Positions 8,762-18,810 are shown, numbered from the stretch's first letter. The stretch is 26,658 nucleotides of DNA from Candidatus Hadarchaeota archaeon (GCA_040755315.1 JBFMBF010000016.1:1-26658); one strand, 5' to 3'. Numbers and translations are program-made. The notes: generated by a model not told the origin, from the letters alone.

Positions 8762-8838
8762 ATGTCAAACGTTTGACACTCACACCAAAGATGTCAAACG
8801 TTTATCACGCAATCTAAGCAATGTCAAACGTTTATCAG
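8762..8838. repeat. Three near-palindromic repeats ATGTCAAACGTTT(G/A)(A/T)CA
   Basis: Copies start at 8762, 8791 and 8821 (29 and 30 bp spacing). The first contains the perfect palindrome TGTCAAACGTTTGACA. Located in a divergent intergenic region. Confidence 0.95.
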
Positions 8839-8922: not shown

Positions 8923-9315
8923 ATGTGGCAATATCACGCGGCCTTGATGGTACTGGGCTTCTCGCTCATGGTAACCGGCGCGGGCGTCTCCAAGTTCATG
9001 AAAAAGATGCCATGGTGACTCAGGGTTCACAAACGGTTGGAGGTATCCGCATCAGCGTTTTCACTGTTCGGGTTGGTTGCGGCAATTTACTATGTGCAGT
9101 CTACCAGTGGGATACACTTTAGAGTTCCTCACACATTTTTCGGCGCAATCACAATAGCGTTTGTTGTAATCACTCCAATATCCGGCTATGCTCAATTCAA
9201 GTCAAAAACTCACGGCCCGCAAATCAGGAAGACCCATCCATGGCTGGGGCGCGTCACCATTCTCTTGATGTTGATAACAATCATTGGCGGGCTTTCAGCG
9301 GCGGGAATTTTTTAA
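8923..9315 (+). pseudogene. Cytochrome b561-like 4-TM heme protein interrupted by an in-frame TGA at 9016-9018
   Basis: GAGGTGA SD at 8909-8915 and ATG at 8923: MWQYHAALM...KKMPW*LRVHKRL...VPHTFFG...KTHPWLGR. It has four spaced His residues and is in frame with track ORF 9037-9315. Confidence 0.75.
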
Positions 9316-9351: not shown

Positions 9352-9366
9352 CCGAAAGTTTAAATA
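9352..9366 (+). promoter_or_regulatory. Strong-consensus archaeal BRE+TATA promoter
   Basis: CCGAAAG immediately followed by TTTAAATA. Predicted start site near 9389-9392. Confidence 0.75.
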
Positions 9367-9391
9367 GGGCAAAACATCAAAAATGGCTATT

Positions 9392-9585
9392 GCGGGGAAA
9401 AGCCAGTCATCAAGGCCAAACCTTGGCTCAAGGGCCTGGGGGAACCGCGGAGAAACCCAGCGACTGGGGAAGGACGCGGATGGGCGCACTGGCAGCGGTG
9501 CGCTGAGACCAAGTGACTGGAAAAAGATCGACAGACGAAAAGCGCAGCTTGACTGCCACGGAGTAATCTGGCGGTCGAACCCCGT
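9392..9585 (+). ncRNA. Candidate structured non-coding RNA (~194 nt), family unassigned
   Basis: Terminal helix GCGGGG/CCCCGT plus five nested or internal helices, GUAA and GCAG tetraloops, an upstream promoter and a downstream T-run (9595-9600). Confidence 0.65.
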
Positions 9586-11490
9586 TCATGGCAGTTTTTT
9601 CAACCTTTCAAGCTCGTTTGCCACGTCTCCGAGGCCGAGCTCCTCCAGCCTCGCCCGCGGGATCCATCCTGTATTCCAGTCCCACTGTCGGAGCTGGTAG
9701 TACTCCGGAAGCATGTAGTCTAGCTCCACGACATGGCCCCTTGGAGGGCCCTCCGGTGCCGGAGATTTTATCATTCGAGAAGGCAGCCTGTCATCCTTGC
9801 GGGTAACTCCCTCTCGAATGTTGAACGCCCTCTCAAGCGAAAATATCCGGGCACCTGTCGTGAAGAGAGAGCTGGCCGTGTGCTTGATGCCGGTGACGGC
9901 GGTGAGGGCCCTTGCGTAATCTTCAAAGTAGAAGACGGGCGGCCAGCAGGCGCCGAACTTGCAGGTCACGAGGGAGTCCACGACTGCGCAGAAGTTCTCC
10001 CCGTCCCTGACCATCAGCGCCTTGTACTTTGGGTTCAAGCGGTCGGCACCCTCGGGCATGACCTTCTTTCCGAACCTTCGCTCTATCTCCTCGACGAAGC
10101 CGACCTCGCTCAGGACCTCGAAAGATGTGAGGTGGTCCGCTCCCCTGTTTGCGGTGGCGTGGGAGAGCCCCATGGACTTCTGGGCCCGCCCGTCCTGCGC
10201 TGGCTCGTCCATCCCCTTGACGGTCATGTTGAACTCCTCGGTGGCAGGGCCGAGCCTCTTGGCGAGCCTGTCGGTCCCCTCGGCCAGCAGGTTCCCGAAG
10301 CCTTCCCGCCTCACCAGCTTTTCTATACACTCGATTATCGCTTCCGCATTGCCCCAGCTCAAGTCTATCCCGCCCGTGTCCGCTTTCTTCAGGAGTCCCC
10401 GCTCGTAGCACTCCATGGCGAATGCGATAACCCCCCCGCAGGAGATCGTATCGAGGCCGTAGATGTTGCAGAGCCTGTTGGCGTAGAGTATGGCCTCCAT
10501 GTCCGAGTTCCCGCACCTCCCGCCCAAACTTGAAAGGGTCTCGTACTCGACTTTCCCCTCAAGCGGCCTGCCCCCCGCATTGTTTTTCAGGAAGCACTCA
10601 CAGCGGAGCGGGCAGCCGAAGCACGCGCGATCCCTCAGCTTGAAGTCCCTGACTATTTTTTCGCCGCCTATCTCGTGCGCCATGTCGAAGACGCCGCTTT
10701 GGAAGTTCCTAGTGGGGAAGCGGCCTATCTCGTTCATGAGTTCCACGAGTATGGTTGTCCCGTACTTTGTGGTGGAAGCGGAGAACTTGTGTGAAACAAC
10801 CCTTTTCCTTCCTTCGGTAGCCAGCTTTGAGAACTCGTCCAGGTCGGCGATGGGGACGCTGAAGTCGCCCCTGACGGAGATGGCCTTCAGGTTCTTGGAC
10901 CCCATGACGGCGCCAGGGCCCGTGCGGGCGGCCGAGCGGTAGTCGTGCATGATGGCGGCGAATCTGACGAGGTTTTCTCCCGCTTGCCCGATGGAGACCA
11001 CCTCGCAGCCGTCCCCCTTTTCCTCCCGGAGCATCTGCTCGGTCTCGAGGGCGTCCCGACCCCAGAGCCTCTCCGCGCTTTTCAGCTGGGCCGCGCCGTT
11101 CTCCACATCCAGATAAACCGGCTTTTCCGCCCTGCCGTGAACCACGATGGCGTCGAAGCCGGAGTACTTCAGCTCTGAGCCCCAGTGGCCCCCTGAGTTA
11201 GCTTCGCCGTAGAGTCCCGTCAGGGGGGACTTCGCCGCTACCTCGTACCTTCCAGTCTGGGACCAGGTTGTCCCGTTAAGCGGGCCGGTGGCGAATATCA
11301 GGACATTTTCTGGGCCGAGGGAGTCTATCCCCGGCTTTAGGAGGTTGAAGAGGAGCCTGGTGCAGAGGCCGTTCCCCCCGATGTAGTTCATGGCGAGCTC
11401 TTTGTCGAGCTTTTGCTGCACAGCTTTTCCGCGGGTCAGGTCGACTTCCAGCACTTTTCCCATGTAGCCTCCTATTCTGTACTCAGCCAT
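9586..11490 (-). CDS. aor: Tungsten-dependent aldehyde:ferredoxin oxidoreductase family protein
   Basis: GYMGKVLEVDLT, KSPLTG, SIGQAGENLVRFA, GAVMGSKNLKAI, CFGCPLRC, EYET, GLDTIS and RGADH motifs. Confidence 0.96.
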   Translation of the reverse strand: MAEYRIGGYMGKVLEVDLTRGKAVQQKLDKELAMNYIGGNGLCTRLLFNLLKPGIDSLGPENVLIFATGPLNGTTWSQTGRYEVAAKSPLTGLYGEANSGGHWGSELKYSGFDAIVVHGRAEKPVYLDVENGAAQLKSAERLWGRDALETEQMLREEKGDGCEVVSIGQAGENLVRFAAIMHDYRSAARTGPGAVMGSKNLKAISVRGDFSVPIADLDEFSKLATEGRKRVVSHKFSASTTKYGTTILVELMNEIGRFPTRNFQSGVFDMAHEIGGEKIVRDFKLRDRACFGCPLRCECFLKNNAGGRPLEGKVEYETLSSLGGRCGNSDMEAILYANRLCNIYGLDTISCGGVIAFAMECYERGLLKKADTGGIDLSWGNAEAIIECIEKLVRREGFGNLLAEGTDRLAKRLGPATEEFNMTVKGMDEPAQDGRAQKSMGLSHATANRGADHLTSFEVLSEVGFVEEIERRFGKKVMPEGADRLNPKYKALMVRDGENFCAVVDSLVTCKFGACWPPVFYFEDYARALTAVTGIKHTASSLFTTGARIFSLERAFNIREGVTRKDDRLPSRMIKSPAPEGPPRGHVVELDYMLPEYYQLRQWDWNTGWIPRARLEELGLGDVANELERLKKLP

Positions 11491-11601: not shown

Positions 11602-11701
11602 ATGTCAAACGTTTATCACTGAAGCTTGGCATTAAACGGTTTCTCTGATGAGGCATGTCAAACGTTTGTCACGCTACCCCACGATGTCAAACGTTTATCG
11701 C
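11602..11701. repeat. Second triplet of ATGTCAAACGTTT(A/G)TC repeats
   Basis: Copies start at 11602, 11655 and 11684, in the aor/porG divergent region and in the same orientation as the 8.8-kb triplet. Confidence 0.95.
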
Positions 11702-18114: not shown

Positions 18115-18810
18115 CTACTTGCTCGCGAAAGCGCTTACATCTCTCTCTCGATTTATGAACAACATCAAGTAAGGTTTACAATTGCGCTTGCGTTCTTTTA
18201 CTTTGTAGATTTTGTGGTGAATTGAAAATCGGTCTAGCAACCTTCCCACATACTCCATGACTTCAAAATTAGTGTTTTTTGCGCCTATGTAACCATACAC
18301 ATATTTTTCTCTTTTGTGTCCGCCAACATGTCCTTCTCCATCAAAGAATCCTCTGAGGAACTCTTTTGGGTAAGCATCGATTATTGGCTTGTGTGCGTCG
18401 AGCGGCTTCTGCATAAAATTCACGATTGATCGAACAGCTGTTTCGGTACCCCATATTCCCCCACTGTTGTGAATTTTGTATGGTCGCCCCATAACATTTG
18501 AAAGACATCTACCAAATTCCTCGACAAAATCCTTATCCATAGCTTCAAGCTTGAACACTTCTTTGCTTGCAGTACAGTCACTGTAGCGTGCGGCAAGAAG
18601 ATAAGAAAGATTTGGAGAATAGGTTTCATCGAAGACTCCTATAACAACTGGTTTCCTGCCTTCATGTATCCAGCTGTCGATGGTACGCCGATTGACTATT
18701 CCTACTCCCAGTTCTTTCTCAATCTTCCTGCTCCCCCACCCTTTCGTTTCGTGTAATTTGATTGCACGCTCATAGAGATGGAGCGGTGTTGAATACCGCA
18801 TCGATTCCAC
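18115..18810 (-). CDS. Free-standing LAGLIDADG homing-endonuclease-like protein with N-terminal HTH; C-terminus frameshifted
   Basis: Motif 1 is degenerate (LSYLLAARYSDC) and motif 2 is intact (FLRGFFDGEG). AT-richer than its flanks. The expected VGFSIVRKAQKL tail lies in another frame, past the TAG. Confidence 0.85.
   Translation of the reverse strand: MESMRYSTPLHLYERAIKLHETKGWGSRKIEKELGVGIVNRRTIDSWIHEGRKPVVIGVFDETYSPNLSYLLAARYSDCTASKEVFKLEAMDKDFVEEFGRCLSNVMGRPYKIHNSGGIWGTETAVRSIVNFMQKPLDAHKPIIDAYPKEFLRGFFDGEGHVGGHKREKYVYGYIGAKNTNFEVMEYVGRLLDRFSIHHKIYKVKERKRNCKPYLMLFINRERDVSAFASK

Follow-up and report, generated by a model that had tools for sequence, protein, structure and literature searches.

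An apparently undescribed family of structured RNA genes in Hadarchaeota

The archaeal DNA analysed here (the window: 26,658 nucleotides of Candidatus Hadarchaeota archaeon, GCA_040755315.1 JBFMBF010000016.1:1-26658) carries, next to the aldehyde:ferredoxin oxidoreductase gene aor, a feature that is almost certainly a genuine non-coding RNA gene. It represents an apparently undescribed, phylum-restricted family of archaeal structured RNAs with paralogue classes, found as genes of about 195-235 nt in deep-subsurface and hot-spring archaea. The two-arm secondary structure of the RNA is conserved under purifying selection, and comparative sequence analysis indicates non-coding, structurally selected, independently promoted, multi-copy RNA genes that are tied to no single downstream gene. 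An earlier note, made from the window alone, had proposed an undescribed archaeal non-coding RNA with its own promoter at this site; the proposal is supported, with corrections to its structure model and terminator.

The window copy and the conserved fold

The window copy lies between a cytochrome b561-like gene and the convergent aor (Pfam search). Its features, in window positions with the strand in brackets, are these:

9352-9358 and 9359-9366 (+): BRE and TATA box, read in the sequence
9389-9589 (+): RNA gene, class A copy (covariance model R1, 153.9 bits)
About 9392-9586 (+): predicted mature RNA of the window copy
9392-9397 with 9580-9585 (+): closing helix P1, base of the three-way junction; 6/6 pairs changed on both sides; 8 bp in class B
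9403-9520 (+): arm 1; P2 9403-9409/9514-9520, internal loop, and P3 9414-9417/9507-9510 closing the four-way junction
9418-9443 (+): P4 hairpin element; 9421-9423/9438-9440 and 9426-9428/9433-9435, loop CAAG; 99% of cells paired
9445-9479 (+): P5-P6; P5 9445-9449/9475-9479, purine-rich symmetric internal loop, P6 9456-9460/9464-9468
9484-9503 (+): P7 hairpin (8 bp), from comparative alignments and the same-genus orthologue
9526-9576 (+): arm 2; P8/P9 9526-9536/9566-9576, GAAAA 9537-9541 with GAGUA 9561-9565, P10 9542-9547/9553-9559, tip shortened
9586-11490 (-): aor (Pfam AFOR_N/AFOR_C), convergent neighbour outside the RNA
9595-9600 (+): T6 run, antisense of aor Lys-Lys codons; possible substitute terminator

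The BRE and TATA strings sit where the earlier note had placed them, and archaeal promoter geometry predicts a start site at about 9389-9392. Across the family, a TATA-like box occurs at start-site distance in 72 of 76 copies (6 of 82 alignment rows were dropped as fragments or false), against 2.6% of control positions, and a 3' T-tract follows 59 of the 76, against 6.8% in the control, with class A accounting for most of the misses. Class-B RNA probably starts at the first G of P1, because this G lies 22-27 nt past the TATA box. At the 3' end of the window copy, the T6 run pointed out earlier reads, on the other strand, as the final Lys-Lys codons of aor (KKLP and stop). The abutment of the RNA on the aor stop codon, also claimed earlier, is present here but is secondary: the same-genus orthologue has its own T4 directly after P1 and 28 more bases ahead of the aor stop, and a 28-nt deletion in the window genome removed the T-tract, so that P1 now abuts the stop. 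The T6 run may serve as terminator of the window copy. Between the window copy and this orthologue, 179 of 195 positions are identical, compared with 334 of 459 third codon positions of aor, and several of the differences are compensatory (for example, A9409-U9514 in the window is C-G in the orthologue). On the other side of the element, the cytochrome b561-like gene (window 8923-9315, plus strand) carries a TGA in frame at codon 32, a position occupied by Trp in the same-genus orthologue; this is probably due to a nonsense mutation or an assembly error.

An open frame of 105 codons (ORF 9383-9700) spans the element, and its equivalent is stop-free within the element in the same-genus orthologue, which could suggest a small protein gene whose DNA folds by chance. 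This reading is refuted, and we give it practically no weight: differences fall on codon positions 1, 2 and 3 at 32, 38 and 31%, with no third-position excess, so that the codon-type conservation named earlier as an argument against an RNA is missing; all three frames are interrupted by stops in 12 of 18 class-A homologues; the same-genus orthologue lacks the ATG; and the frame has no Pfam match. Many class-B copies have a different ATG, at nt 8; it lacks conservation, and variants with a UAAG loop close its frame.

The conserved fold begins with the closing helix P1, which leads into a three-way junction bearing two arms. Arm 1 consists of P2, an internal loop and P3, and P3 closes a four-way junction with the hairpins P4, P5-P6 and P7; arm 2 consists of P8-P9, a GAAA/AGUA motif that we take to be loop-E-like, and P10. 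Among 160 distinct full-length sequences, P4 is flanked by conserved RAAC (151 copies) and GGRGA (154), and its loop is UACG in 67, UAAG in 58 and CAAG in 22. P5 and P6 are paired in 94-100% of cells, with two-sided changes present; UAA precedes P7 in 121 of the 160 copies and is replaced by UGG in the window copy, which also differs in its shortened arm-2 tip. The two strands of the arm-2 motif, GAAA and AGUA, occur in 159 and 149 copies. The tip of arm 2 is a GGUCGA loop in 94 of 109 long copies (at least 216 nt) and a GNRA-type loop in 30 of 51 short ones.

Pairing is strongly conserved by every measure used. In 82 rows fitted to a covariance model, 93.8% of cells are paired and 37 of 42 pairs show two-sided changes; in a plain MAFFT alignment of 32 rows, scored against a structure drawn from those same sequences, the values are 95.0% and 46 of 62. 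Slid-register controls reach at most 48% paired, and 0 of 500 shuffles attained the observed values, in a test inflated by relatedness among the sequences. The top 25 APC-corrected mutual information pairs (92 of 97 rows) all fall in helices; the same analysis found no covariation for a tertiary pair or pseudoknot. Unpaired columns are 84% purine (92 of 97 rows), and invariant residues are concentrated at the junctions. Homologues and covariation, named in the earlier note as the check on its proposal, are thus both found, and the helices covary strongly.

The window copy itself folds better than shuffled sequence on the plus strand (z -3.48, 0 of 200 shuffles as good), as the RNA interpretation had predicted, compared with z -1.29 and 19 of 200 on the minus strand. 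Each helix proposed from the single sequence does join complementary segments at the coordinates given for it. Homologues uphold P1, P2 and the 8-bp hairpin P7; the other three fare poorly in a 19-row class-A alignment, where the CTTGG+CTCA/TGAG+CCAAG helix is paired in 57.8% of cells, the CTGGG helix (9436-9440/9456-9460) in 66.3%; for the 3' hairpin with its GUAA cap the value is 66.7%, and none of its pairs changes on both sides. For class A, the comparative fold pairs 89.9% of cells (a value that includes a poorly aligning short hairpin, P10b, at 24.3%), compared with 67.0% for the five internal helices proposed earlier (in which P7 is under-counted through an alignment offset). Single-sequence folding is misleading here because the minimum-energy fold of the window also favours the non-conserved 3' hairpin.

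Distribution, paralogue classes and promoters

BLAST across 61 related genomes gave matches in 15, a few of them spurious, and found a second copy in the window genome. Covariance models built from 15 and 32 sequences matched 51 of 66 Hadarchaeota genomes (20 of 26 high-quality ones), with 1-5 full-length copies per positive genome and tandem pairs in one genus. In the window genome the search finds three copies: the one in the window, C33:4883-5113, and a diverged one at C18:8991-9196. A pattern scan of metagenomes returned 112 loci, and among the matches listed 79 of 80 fit the covariance model. Three exact-pattern scans of 185,579 genomes returned 29, 45 and 39 loci, and the named records place the family in Hadarchaeota; a few genuine copies come from records titled too broadly to assign; six bacterial and four viral pattern matches are chance occurrences, with covariance model scores of at most 12.9 bits or none, and the one viral match inspected lies inside an ORF. 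In four other archaeal phyla the models matched 0/151, 0/38, 0/151 and 0/1 genomes (341 in total); only 14-58 candidates were scored per genome in the three large sets, two of them under stricter filters, so this result means not found in the genomes searched. Viral, phage and plasmid collections held no full match, plasmid and phage BLAST was empty, and a protein-based retrieval aimed at other archaeal lineages yielded only 2 Hadarchaeota loci.

Within the phylum, 15 of 66 genomes (6 of 26 high-quality ones) lack a covariance model match, including 7 of 7 in one genus, and the canonical form must therefore be dispensable. Apparent absence can also be extreme divergence, because slots upstream of polB in genomes negative by covariance model hold remodelled copies. 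In a genus with three of four genomes negative, the interior of the copy in the polB slot is remodelled, with a TATA box and an enclosing GGCGG..CCGCC helix still in place; two of these copies fold with z of -4.2 and -4.9, the third is a 3' half at a contig end, and the copy in the fourth, positive genome scores 27 bits. These diverged copies retain their helices and strong folding and have lost most of the purine and loop motifs. The remodelled copies upstream of polB are:

L170 3935-4126 (-)
L171 1321-1468 (+)
L301 1262-1465 (+)
L178 2492-2697 (-)

A tree of 75 distinct copies, which carries long-branch warnings, divides the family into class A, to which the window copy belongs (23 rows, 100/99), class C (9 rows, 99/92), and class B, which comprises the long copies (40 rows, 89/91); classes A and C are supported clades spanning genera, and class B is weakly supported. 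The family has three old paralogue classes at stable loci: polB, DRG-GTPase/GGR, and moeA/glnA/aor. Class A has moeA, glnA/gdh, aor or a CDF transporter as neighbours; classes B and C have a DRG GTPase or trkA on one side and a geranylgeranyl-reductase-like gene (GGR) on the other, and class B also lies directly upstream of polB. The downstream neighbour, considered for 95 copies, is convergent in 42 (GGR 30, glnA 7, aor 5, so that aor faces just 5 of the 95) and on the same strand in 27 (polB 21, CDF 5, aor 1), with 26 unassigned. In two families with a single copy per genome, the copy is upstream of polB in 9 of 9 genomes. In the window genome's own family, a TATA-like box precedes the polB start by about 30 nt, after the RNA, and this box persists where another gene separates polB from the RNA. 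At one class-A locus the adjoining gene is a eukaryote-type topoisomerase IB gene (L052 3-1364, minus strand).

Class-B promoters carry a 14-bp palindrome, TGGARATATYTCCA, about 14 nt ahead of the TATA box and centred near -52. Among 66 genomes, 23 of 27 distinct matches to the combined palindrome and TATA geometry lie directly upstream of a copy, compared with 1 for the reversed control; the geometry is unique within the window genome, where it precedes no convincing protein gene. From these patterns, TGGARATATYTCCA appears to be a nearly dedicated candidate operator. GTTAC-N7-GTAAC, just upstream of BRE in the class-A promoters of one genus (L059, L060, L062, L067, L070, L071, L102), is a second candidate operator. 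The window copy has neither. A genome-wide scan for a TATA box followed by a closing helix found the class-B copy as well as tRNAs; it missed the window and polB copies and is therefore insensitive. In a genome with no detectable copy, TGGARATATYTCCA with TATA lies ahead of an ORF whose start resembles the CxxxCxxC of radical-SAM proteins (L334 1501-1560; judged by eye, a single match that may be chance).

A different palindrome, TGTCAAACGTTTGACA, occurs in six copies within window 8763-8837 and 11603-11700 (0.01 expected by chance), three upstream of the aconitase X/cytochrome b561-like gene and three in the interval that separates aor from the 2-oxoacid:ferredoxin oxidoreductase genes. Allowing up to 3 mismatches gives 19 sites at about nine places in the genome, a pattern that makes it a candidate operator of a regulon. 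Elsewhere in the window, an ORF with a LAGLIDADG-like domain (18115-18810, minus strand; Pfam) lies upstream of the rpl21e-rpoF cluster. In G000:C10:1-1600, an insertion of some 400 nt, group I intron-like as judged by eye, seems to split the 3' part of 23S rRNA.

Comparison with known RNAs

Rfam 15 gave no match at gathering threshold for the window and 19 related loci, and at E<=10 the 401-nt region yielded three weak unrelated matches, the best with E of 0.2. The literature we searched holds no description of the RNA; supplementary motif tables of large screens or subscription papers may hold one. Motif scans over the 160 copies bear out the earlier failure to find tRNA, SRP RNA, RNase P RNA, C/D or H/ACA signatures. 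RNase P RNA, including reduced type T, is rejected because CR-I (the pattern as we take it to be) occurs in 0/160 copies, there is no pseudoknot covariation, and a canonical gene lies elsewhere in the genome; a loose CR-V string occurs in 26/160. Archaeal SRP RNA is rejected with 2/160 copies matching what we presume to be the helix-8 pattern and a canonical gene elsewhere, and local alignments of the RNA with RNase P and SRP RNA do not outscore shuffled sequence. Against tRNA and tmRNA, ARAGORN found none in the window and 20 loci, TTCGA occurs in 4/160 copies and SmpB in 0/5 genomes; a T-loop-like GGUCGAA pairs within P8 by covariation. Box C, box D and 3' ACA each occur in 1/160 copies, arguing against guides. 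Y RNA with Ro60 is rejected with PF05731 (TROVE) in 0/5 RNA-positive genomes, 3 of them at least 90% complete, and a retron or other retroelement RNA with PF00078 in 0/5 genomes and no reverse transcriptase among 59 neighbours. A sarcin-ricin/5S mimic looks unlikely, since the GAA strand comes ahead of the AGUA strand, opposite to the order in that motif; the corresponding regular expression matched 46/160 copies and is too loose to inform. Riboswitch membership is rejected with 42/95 copies facing a convergent gene and RF00379 negative. Short strings of the RNA (GCUGAA..GGGGGAACC; GUAGGG..CCGAACC) resemble what we take to be the consensus of that c-di-AMP riboswitch, but the RF00379 model finds nothing in the genome at E<=10, the pairings differ, and the copies are mostly outside 5' UTRs.

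The Hadarchaeota RNA does have the hallmarks of a stand-alone large structured non-coding RNA: a covarying structure, its own promoter and terminator, and no coding function. What it works most like, with no homology, is the raiA motif RNA of Bacillota and Actinomycetota, described as 205 nt long (PMC12286853) and as trans-acting with unknown biochemistry (PMC10861870). The likeness is that both are intergenic, intricately structured, of similar size (PMC12286853; PMC10861870) and trans-acting, the last being conjectural for the Hadarchaeota RNA; unlike raiA, the Hadarchaeota RNA is archaeal and multi-copy with paralogue classes, shows no pseudoknot covariation and has no Rfam match. OLE, ROOL and GOLLD likewise stand alone, are ornate and have no known function, and A-minor contacts stabilise them (PMC12286853), but they are much larger (ROOL 659 nt, same source), bacterial or phage-borne, and give no Rfam match here. 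With archaeal RNase P RNA (RF00373) and SRP RNA (RF01857) it shares its own TATA promoter, a G-C-rich helix joining the ends, and multi-way junctions; it differs in the respects given above. CsrB/C and 6S-1/6S-2 type decoys are paralogous, separately regulated bacterial RNAs that act by shape, and theirs is the logic proposed below, although the Hadarchaeota fold has neither repeated GGA hairpins nor a 6S-like rod. Novelty here means lack of homology to any family tested, and the function may prove to be that of a decoy or scaffold of familiar type.

Possible modes of action

The best explanation, in which we place middling confidence, is a Hadarchaeota-specific structured RNA of about 195-235 nt, with several old paralogues, that is transcribed independently, acts in trans and serves as a protein-binding scaffold or decoy. 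The transcript would begin at or just before P1's first G and end in the T-tract, so that little processing would be needed. Invariant purine-rich junctions and internal loops would then pack the arms into a compact tertiary fold, whose surface, and not base-pairing to a target, would bind a protein; the RNA would thereby be a scaffold or titrating decoy in a ribonucleoprotein, its level set by class-specific promoters. Action in trans through such a fold is suggested by the concentration of conservation in purine-rich junctions and loops and by the lack of a variable guide strand. The partner and pathway are a guess, for which the sole lead is the most widespread slot, directly upstream of polB. 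Against a scaffold or decoy stand the lack of tertiary covariation, the 15/66 genomes with no covariance model match, and the diverged copies that keep only helices, a pattern that selection for stability alone would explain as well as selection for a binding surface.

A ribozyme, a ligand-binding RNA or an RNA-only assembly is a possible but doubtful alternative, in which the purine-rich junctions would be an active site or self-association contacts and no protein would be obligatory. The clustering of invariant residues at junctions fits it, as does the class-B tip GGUCGA, which contains the self-complementary UCGA, and most large bacterial non-coding RNA classes of established function are reported to be catalytic (PMC10861870), and GOLLD, ROOL and OLE to form oligomers made of RNA alone (PMC12286853). 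However, no Rfam ribozyme or riboswitch matches, covariation gives no pseudoknot signal, the GGUCGA tip is missing from classes A and C (short copies often having the GNRA-type tip instead), and diverged copies drop the putative core yet retain the helices. A guide or antisense RNA that base-pairs with rRNA, tRNA or mRNA seems improbable. Multi-copy, separately regulated paralogues are typical of regulatory sRNAs, and the family resembles them in this, but its loops are short and purine-rich with no variable single-stranded guide segment, the guide boxes are missing as described, and a search against the 3' part of 23S rRNA, as far as it is assembled, and against the rest of the genome gave no significant complementarity, in an assembly where no 16S marker motif was found.

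We consider it very improbable that the element acts in cis, either as a riboswitch or attenuator for the downstream polB or as a minus-strand 3' UTR or terminator of aor. The 21 copies that immediately precede polB, among them those of all 9 single-copy genomes in two families, and a terminator-like hairpin on the minus strand (9543-9560) would fit such a role; the many copies that face a convergent gene, rarely aor, the separate TATA-like box of polB, the shuffle-level folding of the minus strand and the negative RF00379 result do not. Least credible among these is a non-autonomous mobile element or relic (a MITE, a retro-copy or an omega/bridge-type RNA), which we regard as largely refuted: the several loci per genome, tandem pairs and decayed copies could recall one, but the loci are syntenic across genera, the classes are old clades, the copies have promoters upstream, which would not travel with an RNA copy, neither reverse transcriptase (5 genomes) nor transposase (59 neighbours scanned) was found, and the viral, phage and plasmid collections hold no full match.

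Apart from the universal ones, archaea are known to have few stand-alone RNA families that are both large and tertiary-folded. The present family is common across a whole phylum and offers 160 full-length sequences for structure work, with G+C-rich variants that suit cryo-EM, and natural comparisons among three classes, degenerate copies, lineages with no detectable copy and a nearly dedicated operator, which together make the fold, partner and regulator directly testable. More speculatively, and on balance unlikely, the family could be a further archaeal core ribonucleoprotein or ribozyme class beside rRNA, RNase P, SRP and guide RNAs, having arisen next to polB and acquired its own transcription factor and condition-specific paralogues, for example as a decoy or scaffold controlling DNA replication or dormancy in slow-growing subsurface archaea. 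If the RNA is catalytic, or controls replication or dormancy, it would represent a new RNA-based function for the archaeal domain.
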